Shown piece after piece: positions 1-64,000 of a stretch of DNA of 64,000 bases (position 1 is its first letter; the number at the start of each line of letters is the position of its first letter). Source of the DNA: a virus (taxonomy: Duplodnaviria > Caudoviricetes); the IMG/VR virus record IMGVR_UViG_3300031994_000023, positions 64,001-128,000 of that record; one strand, 5' to 3'. Made by a program: the position numbers and the translations under genes. The notes under the pieces are model-generated. The model saw only the letters and a list, made by a program, of their open reading frames with translations. It made no database searches and was not told the DNA's origin.

Positions 1-349
1 CATATTGTAATGTTGCCACACCGTTTGAAACACTCACAGGAGTTCCAATGTTTGTCCCGCCGAGTTGGAATTGTACTGTACCTTCATTTACATTTTGTGT
101 TGTATTGTACTTTACATACGCCCTAAATGTTGCTGTTTCACCAATACTGGCAAGTACGTCGTCCACTGTTATTGTTGTAGGAATTCTTATTTCGGCGGTA
201 TTATATCCCGTACCTTCCATGTAATGGTCGTTTTGGACGTATGTTGCATATATTGTATGGGTTCCAGGAACAGTGTCCCCAGGAATTACATATGACACTT
301 CTGCTCTTCCCTGAGACACTGTAGAGGTTCCCGCAGGTATTTTAGTCAA
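1..349 (-). CDS. Ig-like (Big_3-type) repeat structural protein, runs off the window start
   Basis: Translated by hand from TTG at 349: MTKIPAGTSTVSQGRAEVSYVIPGDTVPGTHTIYATYVQNDHY...VNEGTVQFQLGG...VSNGVATLQY. Open to position 1 and similar to 6528..7787. Absent from the ORF track because it has no stop. Confidence 0.75.
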   Translation of the reverse strand, partial: MTKIPAGTSTVSQGRAEVSYVIPGDTVPGTHTIYATYVQNDHYMEGTGYNTAEIRIPTTITVDDVLASIGETATFRAYVKYNTTQNVNEGTVQFQLGGTNIGTPVSVSNGVATLQY

Positions 350-391
350 TTTTTATCTTTTTTTCACTCCTTGTCTTTTTTTGGGGGTGAA

Positions 392-2710
392 TTAAATTTC
401 TAAACTATATCCGGAGGTGGATTTGACCCTTGTGGAAAGTTTTCCAGTTTCATCCAATGCCATGCTCACACCTACGTTAATAAGTGTTACAACACCTGCA
501 AGAACAATAGATACTGGTACAAATATATGATAACTATTTATTACCTCAATCTCTCCTATGTTAACACTTCGGATAACTTCACATTCATCTAATACTTCTT
601 TGGCTACTGTTTCGAGCAGTGCACGGAAGGATTCTATGTTAGTTGTGAAATTGTTTATTCCAAGACCATTCTCAAATTGTAACCTTTTAAGTAAGTATGT
701 TACACTTCTTATATGGTTTGTGTGCCATCCACTTGGCATGATACTGTTGTTAACATAGAATGTTTTATCTAAACGGTTTTTAGGTCTTATAATTTGTATA
801 CCTGCTTGGTTCAATAGTGTTCCCGCATCATTTTCGCCGAGGAATGGTTCTTCATCGATGTAAGTTAATCCAGGGATTGTTTGATAAGTGAGGTCTTGAC
901 TAATGTTTAGACTACATATCCATCCACACATATGTGCTGCCAGTTCCATTGGAGTTACCGTTTCTCCGTTTATTATTCCTCCTTGGTAGAACAATCCACA
1001 TGTAGATAATTCGTTGGTTTTTCTTTTGAATAATTTTGCAATATCTAACGCTCCGAATTCTGCGATGTTCCAGAATGGATTGGAACCATCGGGGTTGTAT
1101 CTTTTGGCAGCTGCGTTTTCGGCGTCCTCATTTTGGTACAAGGTTTTTAGTTTGGAATTTAATTTAATGTAGTTACTTGGTACACCATCATATGTTATTG
1201 TTACATCTCTTCCTTCTGGTGTTCCTTGGGTGCATATGGCTCCCACATAATTTACTGGACGGTGGCTTGTAAATTCGTTGTCGACGAAGTCTAGTATGTA
1301 ATTGTATACATCTCCAAGGTTTCTGATGTATTTTCCTTGGTTAGTTCTTCCGTAGACTGTTTCATCGTTTTCGTCTGTTACTACGAATGATTGGGCTACA
1401 GGTACATTGAACACCACATGCTTTATAAGTTCTGGGTCATCATAAGCTAATCTTGAGTATGTACCTCCATCTTCCGCAGTGTATTGGTATGATGGGTATT
1501 TTTTTCCATCTACATATTCTCGAAATACTATGACCGCTTTTTGTTCATTTGTTCCGAGTTGCAGTTCGTCTCCCGTTGTTTTATCATATACTGGTTTTAA
1601 GTAGGTTTTACCATTTTTCGTGACTGTTAATAATTCACCTGTTGTTTTGTCTAGGAGTGCTCTCCATGTTTTTTCAACACCTGTTCTGGTTATGGTTCTT
1701 TTTGGCTTGGCTCCTACAGGTACACTTGTCTGATAGTACGCTTCCACTGTTTTAGTTGTGTCGGAAGAACCTGTGAATACAACAAACCGAATTAACTCAG
1801 GACTGGTGTAATCAAGCATTGTTTTTGTTCCAACGACCTTTCCTTGTGCATTAGTAAGTTCTATTGTTTTCTGAGGATATTTTTCTCCATTAATGTATTC
1901 TCTGAAAACAACCACTGCCTTTTTCTCTGTAGTATCTAATTCTACTTCTTCTCCAGTGTTTAAGTCGTATGGTGATTTGAGATAAATTTTTCCATTAGAT
2001 ATTGTTGTTACGAGAGCGTTGGTCTCTTTATCTAGAATTACTGACCATCCTTTTTCTCCCTCTTTGGTTATTGTTTTTTTAGGGATTGCACCAAGAGGTA
2101 CGGCATATTGGTCGTACAGTTCATTTACTGTCAGAGGGTGGTTGAATATTTCACGTAGGTCTCCACTGATGAAGAGTAAATCCATATCTTCATCGGCTAT
2201 CTGGTGTAATGCGTTCTGTAGTTTAGGGAATGATAATGATATATCATTTTTGATTGTTTCACTTGGTTGTATATCTGCGTGTGATGTTGTGTCATTACCT
2301 GAAACAATGGATGCTGTCACTTGGTCGAATTTTTCTTCTTCCACTACACTGTCAATGTATTCTTTTTGTATTTCTGTTGGGTTTGTTGGTTTGAGGGTAC
2401 ATGTGTTCAAGCAGGTTATACTGTTTGCACCACCGTATCCTCTTATTCCTTCCATGAATATTCTTCGTGCAGCTCTTACTCCGTCGTACCAGTATACGTC
2501 TGTGGTTCCTATGGTTACTCCATAATGTCCTACTATTTGTGAGTAATTTTCGGCAGCAAATATTTTTTGTTTACTACTTGGAAATGCACCGATTAGTGCA
2601 ACTTTTCCTGCGGTTCCGAGTTTGTTTGTTTCTCGTTGTGTTTCGTTTCTTAGTTCGACTCTTGTTCGTATATCTACGTTTGTCATTTTTTTGTATTTAT
2701 CCTCCTCCAA
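392..2710 (-). CDS. Probable tail sheath protein with inserted tandem domain duplication
   Basis: 772 aa, downstream of neck genes. N-term KVALIGAFP and C-term LAAHMCGWICSLNISQDLTY...LLNQAGI...VNNS have a sheath-like pattern. Confidence 0.6.
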   Translation of the reverse strand: MEEDKYKKMTNVDIRTRVELRNETQRETNKLGTAGKVALIGAFPSSKQKIFAAENYSQIVGHYGVTIGTTDVYWYDGVRAARRIFMEGIRGYGGANSITCLNTCTLKPTNPTEIQKEYIDSVVEEEKFDQVTASIVSGNDTTSHADIQPSETIKNDISLSFPKLQNALHQIADEDMDLLFISGDLREIFNHPLTVNELYDQYAVPLGAIPKKTITKEGEKGWSVILDKETNALVTTISNGKIYLKSPYDLNTGEEVELDTTEKKAVVVFREYINGEKYPQKTIELTNAQGKVVGTKTMLDYTSPELIRFVVFTGSSDTTKTVEAYYQTSVPVGAKPKRTITRTGVEKTWRALLDKTTGELLTVTKNGKTYLKPVYDKTTGDELQLGTNEQKAVIVFREYVDGKKYPSYQYTAEDGGTYSRLAYDDPELIKHVVFNVPVAQSFVVTDENDETVYGRTNQGKYIRNLGDVYNYILDFVDNEFTSHRPVNYVGAICTQGTPEGRDVTITYDGVPSNYIKLNSKLKTLYQNEDAENAAAKRYNPDGSNPFWNIAEFGALDIAKLFKRKTNELSTCGLFYQGGIINGETVTPMELAAHMCGWICSLNISQDLTYQTIPGLTYIDEEPFLGENDAGTLLNQAGIQIIRPKNRLDKTFYVNNSIMPSGWHTNHIRSVTYLLKRLQFENGLGINNFTTNIESFRALLETVAKEVLDECEVIRSVNIGEIEVINSYHIFVPVSIVLAGVVTLINVGVSMALDETGKLSTRVKSTSGYSLEI

Positions 2711-3335
2711 AGCCTATTTCGTCTTCTTTTTTATGTGTGTTTTGTTTTTGGTGTAGTTGTATGAGTTCTCCTTTTCTTAGTATGTCTGGGTATACTTTGT
2801 GCCATTCTTTGTCTGTGTTTTCGATTCCTATTTGTACACATAGGTCTACTCGTAGGTCGTTACTGCATATTGATGGGTATGCTGTTTTTTCGTTTATTTC
2901 ATATGTTAGTAGTTCTAGTGTGTATTCTCTTAGGTGTCCTGGTTTTTCGTATCTTGGCACTACTTGGTTTATTTTGCAGTATTTACTTAATGGGGATAGT
3001 TTTATGTGTTGGTCTATGCATTTGACGGTTGTTTTTAGTAGTTGTTGGGCTTGTATGTAGTTGTAGTTGCTTGTTCTTATTATTATTTCTACGAGTGTGT
3101 TGTATCCGTCTCCTTCCATTGTGGTGGGTTTGCCGTCGGTGGTCATGCGGTCTCTTACTATGTATATTCTGTTTATTTCTTCCATGTCTTCCGATGTATA
3201 GGAGTCATCCATGAATTGTATTTGGAATAGGTTTAGTATTTGGTCGCCTTCTTGTTGTTTTTGGATTAGTAAGTTGTATATTTCGGTGTCGGATTCTAGC
3301 CATTCGTATCCTTTTCTTGTGTTCATGTTTTCCAT
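2697..3335 (-). CDS. Putative tail terminator/neck protein
   Basis: Position between the gp10-like gene and the sheath; size fits. Confidence 0.4.
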   Translation of the reverse strand: MENMNTRKGYEWLESDTEIYNLLIQKQQEGDQILNLFQIQFMDDSYTSEDMEEINRIYIVRDRMTTDGKPTTMEGDGYNTLVEIIIRTSNYNYIQAQQLLKTTVKCIDQHIKLSPLSKYCKINQVVPRYEKPGHLREYTLELLTYEINEKTAYPSICSNDLRVDLCVQIGIENTDKEWHKVYPDILRKGELIQLHQKQNTHKKEDEIGFGGG

Positions 3336-3421
3336 ATTATGTAATGTTTTCTAATATATGTGTGTGTGGTTATAAAAAGTAAATTTCTTAAGAATTTTTT
3401 TTACAGTAAATACTCTTTCTC

Positions 3422-3832
3422 CTAAAAATATCTACTTAGAACACTGTCTACTACTTCATCCACATTAGCGAGGAGTGGAGTCCATGTTTCATCACTCCAT
3501 GGACGAGGTCTTAAATTTCTAGTACCATCATGTATTTTGGGAGCGTAGGGTATATTGGTACCTATACGAATTTCATTATCGGAAGGTGCCATAATATCTA
3601 CACTATCTCTTAGTCTACCTGTTCTAACCGCATCATGCTCCACAATATATCCTCTTTGTAACTCTTGACTAGTAGAACCTAGTGTGTCAAGAATTACACT
3701 TCCTGCCATGTTTAAGGTTTGGATTGTTTTTTTTATTTCTTCTTCTATTATTGACCTGCATATTGGGGGCAGAGCCGTGTCTAATGTTGCAGTAACTTCA
3801 ACCCTTATTATGTGTCCATACCAATCAGACAT
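3422..3832 (-). CDS. HK97 gp10-like tail-completion protein
   Basis: RTGRLRDSV...IGTNIPYAPKIHDGT...RPRPW motif. Confidence 0.75.
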   Translation of the reverse strand: MSDWYGHIIRVEVTATLDTALPPICRSIIEEEIKKTIQTLNMAGSVILDTLGSTSQELQRGYIVEHDAVRTGRLRDSVDIMAPSDNEIRIGTNIPYAPKIHDGTRNLRPRPWSDETWTPLLANVDEVVDSVLSRYF

Positions 3833-3851
3833 AAAAACACCATTTTACCTA

Positions 3852-4067
3852 TTATATTCGTTCTAAATACTCTTTCAACTGTTTATGTGTTCTGTGAATT
3901 AAATAAACATCCAATATTAAAATAATTATATCTGCCATCATAAGCAAGCCATAATCATTATATACCATATGCCTAACTAAGAAAACAATTATCAATAGGG
4001 CAAGTATAGTAATTGCCATAAATCCATAGGTAATATGCAATACATTATCTCTTTGTTGCTTTTTCAT
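3852..4067 (-). CDS. Small 2-TM membrane protein
   Basis: Two hydrophobic segments in 71 aa. Confidence 0.55.
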   Translation of the reverse strand: MKKQQRDNVLHITYGFMAITILALLIIVFLVRHMVYNDYGLLMMADIIILILDVYLIHRTHKQLKEYLERI

Positions 4068-4125
4068 CTTTTATCCATTAGTTCATTAAATTTTATTAAT
4101 ATATTGAGAGGATATTATTCCCAGT

Positions 4126-4332
4126 TTAGGGTTTGGTTCTCACACTTAGTATGGTGGAAATCACAAGATAAAATAATATAACAAAACACCACCATACAAG
4201 ACCAGTTAATCCTAAATAATTAGCCAAAGTTACACCAACAACTATAGTAATAATCAAAGGAATAAATAAAATAATCAATACCATTATGAACAAACCAATA
4301 ATTCCCAATCCTAATATATATTCTTTAATCAT
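4126..4332 (-). CDS. Small membrane protein
   Basis: 68 aa, almost entirely hydrophobic. Confidence 0.55.
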   Translation of the reverse strand: MIKEYILGLGIIGLFIMVLIILFIPLIITIVVGVTLANYLGLTGLVWWCFVILFYLVISTILSVRTKP

Positions 4333-4347
4333 AAAATCATCATTTCC

Positions 4348-6531
4348 TTAAAATTGTGATAAGTGAGCATTCCTTATACTCTGCAATGTTCCATCAGAAA
4401 CCGACACATCACACATATACTCAACATCCTTCATATGAATAACACCAGTAATAGCCAAAAACAAATAATCATTAAAATAAGTGTTGTTCTCATCCAATGT
4501 AGGAATAGTATATGTTCCAATACTTGTTCCATCCTGTAAAGTATCCAATTGATGGTCATTTAATCTGAACTCGATGGTGTGCCATGTATTGTTACTCATC
4601 CTTGTTCCACCATGTCTGTTCTGACTGTTTTTTGGTCCATTAGTCCAATTTCTACTACTTCCAAGACCATACCACCAACTCTTTACATTAGTCATATGGT
4701 CATTGTTGTATTTTTTCATAGTACCTAGTATGATTGCATTGTTGGAAGCATTACTGTAAATCTTAAATTTGAACAAACCTTCACTTCCAATTACCAATGG
4801 ATATTTCCAATAAACCCTCTGATAATCACCAGATGGTGATTTTACAGCAGTTGAACCACCAACAGTAGCCAATGTTGCAGAATTACCAGAATCAGTAACA
4901 TTCCAATTATTTAATGAATTACATAAATCATAAATCATTCCCTGATATGGCAGTACATGAATACTCTTAGATGATGCTGAAATTATGTTTGTTCCACCAT
5001 ATCCAACACTTAAATTATTGTTATAATCATTGAGATTTTCAAGCGTGTAATTGAATGTGAAATCACCATTGGAATCTGTTGTAACAGTCATTAAAACATT
5101 GTTGTTGGAATCACTTACTGTGATGTTTGCTTCAGAAATACCTGTTCCATTTGTTGTTAATGTTCCAGTGATTGTTTTCTGTTCTCCAGATATGGTTTCT
5201 ATGGTGTTTACATTGGTGGTAATTGTTGATGGTTTTTTATTCACATTAACTGTTAATGTGTTACTTCGGCTTGTGTTGTATTCTGTTCCACTATCTGTGT
5301 AGATAGCATATATGTTGTGTGTTCCTGTGGTTGAGGGTGTGAATGTTATTTGTGTACTGTTACCTGTGATTGCATAGTTTTGTTGTACTATGTCTGTTCC
5401 ATCGTATACGGTTATGTATCCAGTGGTTAGGGTTGTGTTGTTGTTGTTTTCTTTTACAATTATTGATAAAGTCAAGTTTTCTCCTATTGTAACACTCGAA
5501 GTACCACTTATTGTTGTAGTGGTTGGATACCGGAGTATTTCCAGTTCACCAATTCCTACTGAACCCTCATAACCATCATTCTCCAAATACCGTGCAGTAA
5601 TCTGATAAGTCTGACCCGCAACAAAATCATTACTGGAATGACCATTTTCAAAAGTAAGGGTTGATTGAGTAATAGTTTCCTCAGAATAATTCCATATATA
5701 CTCATGGTCATTCAAAGTAACATAAGGATAAGAATAATCAGGATACTCCATACCAGACATATAAGTAACAAGAACAGTGTTTGCTCCACTAACAAATTCC
5801 AAATCATCATGTGGAACATAACTAATCCCATTTTCAGGGTCAATCGTATACCCTTCCACATCTATGTCATTAAATAATGTCTGAATATTGCTAGTAGGAT
5901 ATACATAAAGTAAAAGGTCATCGCCATCACTCCAACCCCAATCTCCTTCAACATCAACATTTTCAATAGGGAATGATAAATCAAAAGCCCAACATTCCAC
6001 CAAACCATTAGAATAAAAAGCAGGATACACGGAATATGGCTTTAAAACATCATATCCTGTGGTACTTATCCCGTTTTTAACAGTTGTGGTGGCGGTTGCA
6101 ATTATATCATTAGTAACTTCAACACTTCGAGTAACATTATAATTTGTACCCCCTCTTCTGAAAGTAACTGTTACATTGTATGTACCAGTTTGAGAATAAG
6201 TGGATTCCCACATAACACAATTGGGTTTTGTATGATTGGTACTTTTAACAAGGTCATCCCATTGACCAATAACTCCATTAGGAATGGATGTGGTGTTGGC
6301 AATTGCAACCTCACCACGCTGTGAAATGACATAAGCTGAAGTATCTGTGACTTCTGTGAAAGAACAACTCAAATATATAATAGGTCTTGTGCCTGACCCA
6401 ATCCATTCTACACCCTCGGTATTATGAAAATAACATATACATGATTCCCCAACAACAACTCTTTCAGGAACAACCAATGAATCTGTTAAATAGGAAATAT
6501 ATTCATCAAGATTACTTACCTGTATCGTCAT
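4348..6531 (-). CDS. Ig-like repeat adhesin/fibre protein with C-terminal lectin-like (ConA/LamG-type) domain
   Basis: Thr-rich Ig repeats (GTHNIYAIY..YNTS); C-term NTWHTIEFRLND...DGTSIG beta-sandwich pattern. Confidence 0.65.
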   Translation of the reverse strand: MTIQVSNLDEYISYLTDSLVVPERVVVGESCICYFHNTEGVEWIGSGTRPIIYLSCSFTEVTDTSAYVISQRGEVAIANTTSIPNGVIGQWDDLVKSTNHTKPNCVMWESTYSQTGTYNVTVTFRRGGTNYNVTRSVEVTNDIIATATTTVKNGISTTGYDVLKPYSVYPAFYSNGLVECWAFDLSFPIENVDVEGDWGWSDGDDLLLYVYPTSNIQTLFNDIDVEGYTIDPENGISYVPHDDLEFVSGANTVLVTYMSGMEYPDYSYPYVTLNDHEYIWNYSEETITQSTLTFENGHSSNDFVAGQTYQITARYLENDGYEGSVGIGELEILRYPTTTTISGTSSVTIGENLTLSIIVKENNNNTTLTTGYITVYDGTDIVQQNYAITGNSTQITFTPSTTGTHNIYAIYTDSGTEYNTSRSNTLTVNVNKKPSTITTNVNTIETISGEQKTITGTLTTNGTGISEANITVSDSNNNVLMTVTTDSNGDFTFNYTLENLNDYNNNLSVGYGGTNIISASSKSIHVLPYQGMIYDLCNSLNNWNVTDSGNSATLATVGGSTAVKSPSGDYQRVYWKYPLVIGSEGLFKFKIYSNASNNAIILGTMKKYNNDHMTNVKSWWYGLGSSRNWTNGPKNSQNRHGGTRMSNNTWHTIEFRLNDHQLDTLQDGTSIGTYTIPTLDENNTYFNDYLFLAITGVIHMKDVEYMCDVSVSDGTLQSIRNAHLSQF

Positions 6532-7787
6532 CCTGTATCATTAGAGTTATTATCATCAATGTTTGTTTCCATTTCAAATTGTGTTTGTCCTTCATTTACA
6601 TTGGTATTGTTCTCATCCACTACTGTTGCATTAACATCCACTGTTTCTCCAACATTTCCTTGCACTGCATCTACTGAGACTTGTGTTTGGTGTCTTAATA
6701 ATATGCTCGAAGTTATACTAGTTGTTTGATAATTTTCATTTTCAAGATAAGTTAATGTAAATGGGATTTCGTCACCATAATTAAATCCGAATGGTATTTC
6801 ATATTCATATTCTTGAGAGTCTTGTTCTAAATAAATTGTTTGTTTATCATTATTGCATTCAAACTCTACGAATCCTTCATGTACATTAGTACCATCTGCT
6901 GTGATGTTTAATACTATTTTTGCAGTTTGTTGTATGAGTGTTCCATTTTCTATGAGTGTAGGCGTGGCGTATACGGGAGAATCGTCAATTGTTACATGTG
7001 GTTTAATGTAAAGTTTTCCTTCAACCTCTCTTTCATCAAATTTATTGTTTCCCGAATAAACAATCCTAAACACATGCTCCCCCTCACTCATCGAAGAAGG
7101 AATTGTGTAATCATATAATATTAAACTATTGGAGAAGACTGTGGTAGTGTATATTGGGGTGTTATCTAGAATTATGCTTAGTTCTCCTCCATTTAATTCT
7201 TCAGGAGGATACGCACCTAATTCTATATGGAATGTTTCTGTTTGGTCAGGTTTTGTTTTTATATTATTTGTGTTAATTGTCAACGATTGTTTAGTGCTAA
7301 CAGTACAATAATTATGTGTTTCAGAGGCACTATATTTGTTTGTACCCCAATATATCGCCTTTACTTGAAAATCAGTTGTTTCTTCTTCGGATAATTCATA
7401 CCCATAGACTGCAACACCATCAGTAACTTCTACTAATGGTCCTATGTTGGTGAATGATTCTTGTCCATCCCTTCTTGCTTGAAATTGTACTAATCCTTCT
7501 GTTACAGGTTCAAGAGTATTTAAATCGTTTAATATGACTGTTAAGGTTATGAATCGTGGTTCTTCACCATTTGGTGCCCCTGCTCTGATTATTTCATTTT
7601 CAAAGAGGATGTTGGTTGGTGTTTTAATATATATGTTTTCCCAGTTTTCACTTAGAAGGTAGTCGTCAGAGTCTGTGTAAGTTACATATAGTTTTCGTTT
7701 ACCTGTTTGTATCCCATGTGGTACTTCCCATATGTATTCTGCATTACCTCCATTTACTGTGGCGGTTCCTATTATTTTTTTAATCAT
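6528..7787 (-). CDS. Ig-like repeat protein that begins and ends with half-domains
   Basis: Repeated V.EG.V.F...G...V.DG.A...Y...AIY.G..KY..S units. Confidence 0.7.
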   Translation of the reverse strand: MIKKIIGTATVNGGNAEYIWEVPHGIQTGKRKLYVTYTDSDDYLLSENWENIYIKTPTNILFENEIIRAGAPNGEEPRFITLTVILNDLNTLEPVTEGLVQFQARRDGQESFTNIGPLVEVTDGVAVYGYELSEEETTDFQVKAIYWGTNKYSASETHNYCTVSTKQSLTINTNNIKTKPDQTETFHIELGAYPPEELNGGELSIILDNTPIYTTTVFSNSLILYDYTIPSSMSEGEHVFRIVYSGNNKFDEREVEGKLYIKPHVTIDDSPVYATPTLIENGTLIQQTAKIVLNITADGTNVHEGFVEFECNNDKQTIYLEQDSQEYEYEIPFGFNYGDEIPFTLTYLENENYQTTSITSSILLRHQTQVSVDAVQGNVGETVDVNATVVDENNTNVNEGQTQFEMETNIDDNNSNDTG

Positions 7788-7867
7788 TTATCCTCTAAAA
7801 AATTATGTTTTTTTTTATTTATAATCCGTTTTTTTTTCAATCAGTAATCCATTTTTTTCTCTTTTTT

Positions 7868-8692
7868 TTATTCTTCATAAATGTAAAATGTGACTTTGCC
7901 TTTGTCACATGGTTTACTACCTTCATACACTCTTGCTCTAAGATGAACAGTCCCACCAGTTTCCGTGATAACAGGTTCTATGGTTAGTTTGTATTTGTTC
8001 TCATATCTTCTTTTTATCCACAATGGCTCAGTATACTCTGGTTTACATGGGTCATGTGGCTTGTGTGGAGATAACTGTTTATGAAACGGCTTCTTATGAT
8101 GATGAGGTTTATAAGGTTTATAATAGGGGTTTTCATGGTAATGACCATGAATTAAACGCTCCTTTTCTTCACCACCCCATGGGTCATCTTTTGATGGTGG
8201 AGGTGGAGGTGGTACACGGTTCCTTCTTGGTCGAGGTACACTTTCGGATTTCATATATTCTTCCCAGTACCATTCGTCACCACTGACAGTGAAAAAGTCT
8301 TCACCTTTACGAACATAAGGTTTAAGTAGTCTTCGGGCTTCTTCTATGAGGAGAGTACTTTCTTGTATTTTTTCGTCTTTGAAATGGGCTTTTTCACTTA
8401 AAAGTCCAGCTGCCCAGTAACAGATGGCTTGGTGTATAGAAGGATGACTTGGGAATTGACTTCTGCGAAGGTAGTTTAATGCGTGTACTTTGGCTTTGTC
8501 ATAACTTGTAAGAACTTCTCGACTGGAAACTTCTTTACGAGTCATGTTACTGATTCTTGCTTCTTCTTCGTCGAGGAAGGAGTCTACTCTTCGTGTTTCT
8601 TTGGGATGGTCATTGCATTTCCATCCATCTAAATGGAAGAGTACGTCATTTATTATTTTTTGTTCTCTTATGCTTAGTTGTTTCGTTTTTAT
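7868..8692 (-). CDS. Putative head-tail adaptor with Pro/His-rich linker and C-terminal half-Ig domain; start probably upstream of the annotated 8545
   Basis: Second gene after the MCP. Helical KAKVHALNYL...QAICYWAAGLL adaptor-like pattern. Frame is open up to ATA at 8692, behind a GGGAG SD. Confidence 0.55.
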   Translation of the reverse strand: MKTKQLSIREQKIINDVLFHLDGWKCNDHPKETRRVDSFLDEEEARISNMTRKEVSSREVLTSYDKAKVHALNYLRRSQFPSHPSIHQAICYWAAGLLSEKAHFKDEKIQESTLLIEEARRLLKPYVRKGEDFFTVSGDEWYWEEYMKSESVPRPRRNRVPPPPPPSKDDPWGGEEKERLIHGHYHENPYYKPYKPHHHKKPFHKQLSPHKPHDPCKPEYTEPLWIKRRYENKYKLTIEPVITETGGTVHLRARVYEGSKPCDKGKVTFYIYEE

Positions 8693-63139: not shown

Positions 63140-63679
63140 TTAGTATAGGTCTATGAAATCATATTCCCAATTGTTTTTTATGAGTAAGTCTCTTTCATTA
63201 ACGGCTTCATCTATCGTTTTAAATATTCCATAATGTCCACCATTGTATCTTATGCGATAGGTGTTGTTTTTGGCATATTGGATGTATCGTGGTAAGTTAT
63301 GTTTTTGTCGGTGATTGTAGGTTAATGCATCCTTATTCCACCCATTTTTTTCTAGTTGTTTTTTGTATTCTTGTATGGTTTCATAGGAATCTGAAGAGCA
63401 GAAGTATTGTTTTCCTTTTTGGATGAAGTATGTTCCGTTTTGGTTTTGGTATATGTAAATTGAGTTTGGGTGTTTTTTGTGGTGTTTTTTCTTTGCATAT
63501 TTTTGTTTGATTTTTTTCATTAGAGGCTCATAGAATTTGTTGTTTTTGCACTCTTCGTATATGGGTGTTATTTCTTCAAGTGTTCTTCTTGAAGCAACAT
63601 ACGTGTTTTTCACGTAGATAATATAATTCGATGTGCCATTGTTTTGTGAGTATTTGTAAAGGTATTTTTTGATTTTCAA
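63140..63679 (-). CDS. Repeat-domain DNA-binding-like protein (AP2-like repeats)
   Basis: Three repeats ending in YGIFKTIDEAVNERDLLIKNNW-type motifs. Confidence 0.5.
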   Translation of the reverse strand: MKIKKYLYKYSQNNGTSNYIIYVKNTYVASRRTLEEITPIYEECKNNKFYEPLMKKIKQKYAKKKHHKKHPNSIYIYQNQNGTYFIQKGKQYFCSSDSYETIQEYKKQLEKNGWNKDALTYNHRQKHNLPRYIQYAKNNTYRIRYNGGHYGIFKTIDEAVNERDLLIKNNWEYDFIDLY

Positions 63680-63732
63680 TTAATATCCCATCCCATTGAA
63701 CCCCATTTTTTTTTATTCTGTTTTTACTTCAG

Positions 63733-64000
63733 TTATTTCTGAAAAGTTGCATATTCCCTTTTTTCATCCCACACCATATCATATATGCCTATTGTTAAGT
63801 GGAATATGTTGTTTTCTTCTTCTAATTCGAAAGGTATGCTCTCTTTTGTGAGATAATTTGTTAGTTGTTTTATTTCATCTGTGATTGTACTTACTTGTAG
63901 TTGTATTGTGTCATCTATTACTTCGGTTGTGGCATTATTTTTTCCATTGCCTATTTTTTGTGTGGTGTATTGTTCTAGGTCATATATGGAATCCCAATAC
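63733..64000 (-). CDS. 3' part of a hypothetical gene entering from outside the window
   Basis: Open frame ...NATTEVIDDTIQLQVS...EYATFQK*. Confidence 0.45.
   Translation of the reverse strand, partial: YWDSIYDLEQYTTQKIGNGKNNATTEVIDDTIQLQVSTITDEIKQLTNYLTKESIPFELEEENNIFHLTIGIYDMVWDEKREYATFQK

Follow-up and report, generated by a model that had tools for sequence, protein, structure and literature searches.

We describe here three structural proteins of a tailed virus (Duplodnaviria; Caudoviricetes) in which immunoglobulin-like (Ig) domains are cut in half at the protein termini. The window, that is, the whole stretch of DNA analyzed, comprises 64,000 nucleotides (nt) and corresponds to bases 64001-128000 of the 141,779-bp IMG/VR virus record IMGVR_UViG_3300031994_000023, with the structural module on the minus strand. 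An adaptor-like protein ends in the first half of an Ig domain, and two further proteins, of 419 and 386 amino acids (aa), each begin with a second half and end with a first half. This mid-domain boundary is genuine; it is maintained throughout a large family and falls at the same loop in all three proteins. On balance, and judging from sequence comparison and structure models, it seems rather likely that the halves complement one another noncovalently and so build poly-Ig fibers on the head-tail adaptor. If the halves do pair in trans, long modular fibers could be made from short genes, with modules exchanged by gene fission and fusion.

Half-domain layout and the reality of the boundaries

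A repeat hidden Markov model (HMM) was built solely from the internal Ig repeats of this genome and run against its 446 open reading frames (ORFs). The 386-aa protein is matched as a second half (HMM positions 45-85), three full copies, and a first half (1-39), and the 419-aa protein as a second half (42-81), three copies, and a first half (1-43) followed by a 9-aa acidic tail; the half-matches have E values of 1e-10 to 1e-11 in this set. The last ~40 residues of the adaptor-like protein align with the first half (3-38). Among the 446 ORFs, no further half-domains or partners were found beyond these three proteins. The layout agrees with a first-pass annotation made from the letters alone, which had read the adaptor-like protein as ending in a first half, the 419-aa protein as starting with a second half and ending with a first half, and the protein encoded at 1..349 as starting with a second half; the peptides that it quoted are all found on the minus strand. 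The 386-aa protein also finishes in a first half (...GTVNYEIE, then the stop), encoded beyond the window edge. The gene order implied by that annotation, with the gene at 349..1 following the 419-aa gene, was wrong: a 727-aa protein comes next, and the 386-aa gene lies 6 kb further on, past the sheath gene. The features concerned are as follows.

7868..8692 (ATG at 8545, 225 aa), minus strand: adaptor-like gene, encoding a helical N-domain, a His/Pro-rich linker, and a first half ending ...KVTFYIYEE before the stop
7871..7996, minus strand: C-terminal first half of the adaptor-like protein (strands A, B, and C; acidic YEE tail), Big_3_5-like, placed by repeat alignment
7788..7867, minus strand: A-rich spacer of 80 nt that splits the domain, with the adaptor TAA just ahead of it and an AGAGGA ribosome-binding site (RBS) inside
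6528..7787, minus strand: 419-aa Ig-chain gene, encoding a second half, three full domains, and a first half with the 9-aa acidic tail
7620..7787, minus strand: N-terminal second half of the 419-aa protein (strands C', E, F, and G; basic MIKK start)
6531..6695, minus strand: C-terminal first half of the 419-aa protein (...GQTQFEMETN...)
1..349, minus strand: 5' part of the 386-aa Ig gene (TTG start at 349; whole gene G000:C1:63189-64349, the rest at 63189-64000)
185..349, minus strand: N-terminal second half of the 386-aa protein (MTKIPAGTSTV...)

The position of the cut is constant, after a 'G-x-V-x-F/Y-x-I/L' strand and 3-6 residues ahead of 'I-G-T-A-x-V'. We assign it to the C-C' hairpin loop of a Big_3_5-type Ig domain, with strands A, B, and C in the first half and C', E, F, and G in the second, and a lone half would not make a beta-sandwich, each sheet being composed of strands from the two halves. 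Acidic residues (YEE, EME, EIE) close the first halves, and basic ones (MIKK, MTK) open the second. The domain type is given by the first 116 aa of the 386-aa protein, which match Big_3_5 (PF16640, bacterial Ig-like domain, group 3; E = 8.9e-9, 36.2 bits versus a gathering cutoff of 35.5), and the same family is precomputed on nearly all of its homologues. The 419-aa protein has no Pfam match, but it is recognized by the repeat HMM derived from the 386-aa protein. Searches of PDB sequences returned no solved relative.

The breakpoints, whose conservation the first-pass annotation had proposed checking, are kept in relatives. The 386-aa protein has about 70 homologues at 40-100% identity; their length is 384-396 aa in nearly every case, and they retain both termini, with a conserved M-[TV]-[KR]-x-x-I-G start and a G-T-V-x-Y-E-I-E end, and some 20 further representatives of clusters at 50% identity show the same layout of a half, three full domains, and a half. 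The terminal halves are conserved as strongly as the internal ones. In the related locus L003, with 65% sheath identity, every breakpoint is retained, and the order of capsid, decoration-like, adaptor-like, Ig, Neck1-like, and sheath genes is the same in L003, L004, L007, and L009. A 386-family gene also occurs at L008 1352-7253, in a ~70-kb element with an integrase and a Peptidase_C39/PG_binding protein, and the module is therefore not confined to 140-kb sheath-bearing (contractile-tailed) viruses.

Partial domains in databases are mostly artefacts (PMC4443539), and an apparent third split, of the 386-aa gene in L004 (84 + 292 aa), was rejected here as a gap, a run of N's in the scaffold. 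It is nevertheless hardly credible that the halves as a whole are artefacts of assembly or annotation, given that independent assemblies of many samples share these boundaries and that stops and starts were verified in the DNA. Assembly error was rejected on the identical breakpoints in independent contigs. At 10 of the 11 second-half starts, across 7 loci, in-frame stops lie 0-15 codons 5' of the start, and therefore no first half is hidden upstream. In the window, a TAA stands immediately 5' of the ATG of the 419-aa gene, which is in a different frame from the adaptor-like gene.

It could also be argued that the split is repaired in expression, through frameshifting, stop read-through, ribosomal bypassing, or an RNA intron, to give a single polypeptide. 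Capsid proteins of methanogen viruses gain Ig domains through a -1 frameshift (PMC11375127), and the 80-nt spacer is rich in A runs. We nevertheless consider such repair very improbable, and recoding is excluded. No slippery site, downstream frame open across the junction, or conserved frame relation was found. The spacer between the adaptor-like gene and the Ig chain measures 80 nt with a change of frame in the window, in L003 it measures 18 nt and keeps the frame, and in L009 it measures 223 nt; recoding and an intron are rejected because neither spacer length nor frame is conserved and a stop lies directly before the downstream ATG. The downstream genes each have their own RBS and start, and the gene ahead of the 386-aa gene, that for the sheath, offers no Ig half to which it could be joined.

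Fused relatives and the junction of the adaptor-like and 419-aa proteins

One indication of which halves belong together comes from relatives in which the two genes are one. Searching longer proteins with the adaptor sequence identified a single ORF comprising the adaptor domain, the linker, and the whole Ig chain in P0072, P0073, P0074, P0083, and L007; the fused ORFs of P0072 and P0073 sit on ~139-kb contigs. A fused junction reads, for example, ...FYLYEE-NTRK-LLGTT..., and the window reads ...FYIYEE-stop followed by MIKK-IIGTA..., at the same spot. The fused ORFs are thus joined exactly at the break, and both halves are therefore one domain in those viruses. The C terminus of the fused proteins is again a first half. 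The genes are split in the window, L003, L009, and several cluster representatives, and P0088 is split within the otherwise fused L007/P0083 clade. Fused and split forms are intermixed across the adaptor-domain tree, and well-supported branches require at least 4 changes. Such repeated switching at one loop indicates that the two states are functionally interchangeable, as complementation predicts.

The first-pass annotation had taken a continuous ORF in relatives as a point against complementation, to be put down to assembly error or simple fission. Continuous ORFs were indeed found, for this one junction, and assembly error was not borne out; in our reading, a continuous frame argues for complementation because the split form persists with its own RBS and start codon in several lineages.

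The joined halves also fold in silico. A read-through model was made by extending the L003 adaptor past its TAA, translated as Gly, with 56 residues from the start of the protein that follows, a construct that mimics a linker-joined heterodimer. AlphaFold2 builds from it a complete seven-strand domain at residues 221-325 with a predicted local distance difference test (pLDDT) score of 92-97, in which only the artificial linker is low. The L003 segment equivalent to the first half of the adaptor-like protein forms strands A-C of this domain, which matches macroglobulin (MG)/Ig domains across both halves with Z of 10-10.8. The helical N-domain of the same model has a pLDDT of ~90, and its His/Pro linker is disordered. 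That the C-terminal half of the adaptor-like protein and the N-terminal half of the 419-aa protein would form one domain is thus well supported, if indirectly.

The 386-aa protein and the proposed fiber

Of the head-to-tail chaining proposed in the first-pass annotation, the union of the adaptor and 419-aa halves in one domain is well supported, if indirectly, by the fused relatives, the tree, and the read-through model. Its extension to the 386-aa protein is plausible, and is suggested by gene adjacency in L007, by the similarity of the terminal first halves, and by covariation between the ends of the 386-aa family. In L007, a 386-family gene starts 25 nt past the fused adaptor-Ig gene, whose product has a first half at its C terminus; in L006, 17 nt separate a 386-like gene from a further gene downstream that begins with a second half. 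The C-terminal half of the Ig chain and that of the 386-aa protein are 34-62% identical in 5 genomes, which in 4 of the 5 exceeds the identity to every internal first half (mostly 25-33%); the exception is the window, where the identity to one internal half is slightly higher (38% versus 36%). These values fit the two C-terminal halves being sockets for the same plug.

Covariation was assessed as mutual information with average product correction for 76 members of the 386-aa family, with an effective number of sequences (Neff) of 57. Above the 99.5th percentile, the block of the C-terminal half against the N-terminal half holds 32 pairs; the three intact domains hold 15-23 and mismatched halves mostly 1-10. 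Among the top 30 strand pairs of the terminal halves, 18 fall in the Ig contact classes A-G, B-E, C-C', and C-F (p = 0.001), for comparison with 17, 16, and 12 in the intact domains and 5-11 in all 12 mismatched combinations. This is moderate evidence that the two ends of the family would form one domain, be it in trans between copies or in cis.

The cis option would leave the adaptor and 419-aa halves paired and close the 386-aa protein on itself as a four-domain ring, with no polymer. The covariation of the family's own ends suits cis and trans pairing alike, and the length of the family is constant at ~386 aa. We regard this ring as unlikely on three counts. The AlphaFold2 monomer of the 386-aa protein (50-sequence alignment; mean pLDDT 90), the best model obtained, has both ends open despite the coupling present in its alignment. 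Toward either terminus of the model, read from the DSSP string alone with contacts inferred from it, strands are limited to an F-G hairpin (29-37, 46-54) and an A-B hairpin (347-351, 366-370). Absent are C', E, and C, the strands whose partners would lie in the other half, and the ends are therefore open rather than closed in cis. The interdomain linkers are only 3-4 residues long, which would usually give rods rather than tight rings, and the adjacency in L007 and L006 to genes ending or starting with halves suggests partners in trans.

Beside this adjacency, we note that at L006 1353-1475 the frame is open 5' of the RBS and ATG of the 386-like gene and encodes first-half strands B-C (ETVTLEASILDD...GSLIRFFV). 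The stretch could be a relic of the end of a neighboring gene, or it could give a longer isoform with an almost complete first domain.

Several observations weigh against a fiber that includes the 386-aa protein and hangs from the neck. The 386-family gene of L008 has no neighbor ending in a first half, and a search for natural fusions joining the 386-aa protein to a partner came back empty, which is weak evidence. Every genome holds one more first half than second halves, so that one end must stay unpaired or carry a cap. Within the covariation analysis, Neff is low, the strand classes were defined after the top pairs had been seen, a mismatched block (C-terminal half against the second half of D1) also has 17 high pairs, and the correlation of exact-position covariation maps is not significant for the C-terminal by N-terminal block (r = 0.011 versus 0.07-0.11 among true domains). 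Finally, the fold matches that would identify the anchor as an adaptor reach a Z of ~9 for a helical domain, below the reliable level.

Some of these points could equally be taken to mean that the halves do not pair at all and are flexible or sticky ends that bind capsid, sheath, or Ig proteins of the host surface, or else remnants of fission. The surplus first half in each genome and the negative exact-position test would suit this view, and host adhesin-like proteins have the same Big_3_5 domain (PMC11532034). We judge it improbable, much as we do the ring. The halves keep the core-forming pattern to the same degree as full domains do, the breakpoints lie at the same loop in three protein families and ~90 cluster representatives, the fused relatives show at least one pair to be a single domain, and the ORFs of this genome offer no other half-domains or partners to bind.

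We therefore return to half-domain complementation as the preferred reading, from which we infer association in trans, an order of subunits, a neck location, and a function as fibers. The first half of one polypeptide and the second half of another would fold into a single ordinary Ig domain. As such a domain would be entered at one pole and left at the other, each joint could prolong a string of beads. The chain would originate at the head-tail adaptor-like protein, with its helical ring domain, disordered His/Pro linker, and first half, and would go on via the 419-aa protein and then probably at least one copy of the 386-aa protein, whose ends fit each other and could allow self-addition. 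The product would be noncovalent poly-Ig fibers hung from the neck, probably serving adhesion by analogy with other Ig-decorated gut viruses. At somewhat less than an even chance, the 386-aa protein is a self-complementary daisy-chain subunit, forming open-ended fibers without covalent links and primed by the half-Ig of the adaptor-like protein. Were that so, it would be a principle of fiber assembly described for no virus.

By gene position, the anchor is a candidate adaptor. The adaptor-like gene sits between the capsid and decoration genes and the neck and tail genes, where a head-to-tail adaptor would be expected. Residues 6-137 of its product, the N-domain, match the GP4 portal-tail complex (Z of 9.2), the Pa223 tail (9.0), and the P74-26 neck (9.0), below the trusted level for helical folds, and an Atlas hint to SU10_adaptor has a score of only 0.88. 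Pfam and PHROG searches with the adaptor domain and with bare adaptor homologues gave no matches, nor did a related-locus search with the adaptor as query. Gene order and fold matches of Z ~9 to phage neck complexes are thus suggestive of a neck location.

The conserved N terminus of the adaptor-like protein (~49 codons, ...EQKIINDVLFHLDGW...) is open in frame upstream of its ATG at 8545, at window positions 8545-8692 on the minus strand. As far as 8692, the extension has no ATG, GTG, or TTG in frame; a TTG preceded by GGGAG lies near it in another frame, beside an A run. Either an unusual start codon (ATA/CTA) is used, or there is a homopolymer indel or a frameshift.

Comparison with known systems and genomic setting

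In the donor-strand complementation of chaperone-usher pili, the G strand is supplied by an N-terminal extension, and both a chaperone and an usher are needed. The system proposed here resembles these pili and strand-complemented archaeal surface filaments (PMC2500206, PMC7616799) in that an incomplete Ig-like subunit is completed by the next, giving a head-to-tail, noncovalent polymer of Ig beads. Unlike the chaperone-usher case, in which only the last G strand is missing, the domain is here cut midway at C/C' (3 + 4 strands; first half HMM 1-39/43, second half 42/45-85), both sheets are shared, and different gene products would be chained in a system of the virus particle. No chaperone or usher family was found among the neighboring genes scanned, the rest of the genome not having been scanned for them.

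There is also a likeness to three-dimensional domain swapping, including its runaway, open-ended form, in which chains exchange a part of the fold and self-complementary ends can polymerize. Classical swapping proteins also have a closed monomer, whereas here the gene boundaries themselves carry a fixed offset of half a domain, which leaves no closed monomer encoded; some of the partners, moreover, are different proteins. Split GFP (green fluorescent protein) and the proposed split pleckstrin homology (PH) domain of PLC-gamma1/TRPC3 (PMC2254754) likewise consist of two polypeptides that fold on binding, and the adaptor/419-aa pair, with its fused relatives, resembles such a split arisen naturally. 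The present case differs in that one loop is the site of the cut in three protein families and that the cut would be used repeatedly along a fiber. We class the system as a variant of strand complementation or domain swapping.

Among viruses, the nearest reported case is that of the capsid Ig domains of methanogen viruses, acquired by fusion or a -1 frameshift, of which the Ig-like virion decoration of MSTV1, a gut methanogen virus, likely has a role in adhesion (PMC11375127). Those and other phage Ig decorations differ in being whole domains on one polypeptide, obtained by fusion or a -1 frameshift. Literature searches returned no description of such a half-domain system in viruses. If pairing in trans is correct, the strand complementation of cellular pili would extend to half-domain complementation in a virion; it would also offer a compact natural connector, a split Ig of ~40 + 45 residues, for protein engineering and a concrete structural feature for the poorly known large tailed viruses of gut methanogens. 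Gut methanogens are the likely host: contigs binned as Methanosphaera carry several homologues of the 386-aa protein. A Pfam scan of candidate lysis and other neighboring proteins for host clues matched only the XkdF-type prohead protease.

The structural module runs on the minus strand from a prohead protease/scaffold gene (Peptidase_S78_2, XkdF-type, by Pfam) through the capsid, a 118-aa decoration-like protein, the adaptor-like protein, and the 419-aa Ig protein. It continues with a 727-aa Ig/lectin-like protein, two small membrane proteins, a Neck1/tail-completion-like protein (PHROG 5, E = 1e-5), a 212-aa protein, and the tail sheath. After the sheath come the 386-aa Ig protein, a 133-aa ORF that we take for the tail tube from size and position only (it has no family match), and a 1351-aa ORF that we take for the tape measure from length and position. 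Two further genes are placed as follows.

392-2710, minus strand: tail sheath, by Atlas structure matches to Phage_sheath_1 clusters (template modeling score, TM, of 0.75-0.85 by target)
4348-6531, minus strand: 727-aa protein, overlapping the stop of the 419-aa gene (ATGA)

The 727-aa protein has no half-domain at its start and none elsewhere. It is ~95% identical in L003, where its neighbors are only 50-65% identical, and it is swapped for other proteins of 482 + 914 aa in L004 and 911 + 246 aa in L009. The gene looks like an exchangeable receptor-binding cassette.

The sheath (window 392-2710, minus strand; L004 17902-20850) carries a tandemly duplicated insertion of ~110 aa with the motif '...GAxPKxTITxxGExxW...NGKxYLK...VFREYxxGxKYP' present twice. 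The sheaths of relatives range from 581 to 982 aa, and the number of inserted copies seems variable. Elsewhere in the window, at 12000-43000 on the minus strand (e.g., G000 76293-101285), lie about two dozen paralogous genes whose products begin MASKG or MASKY.

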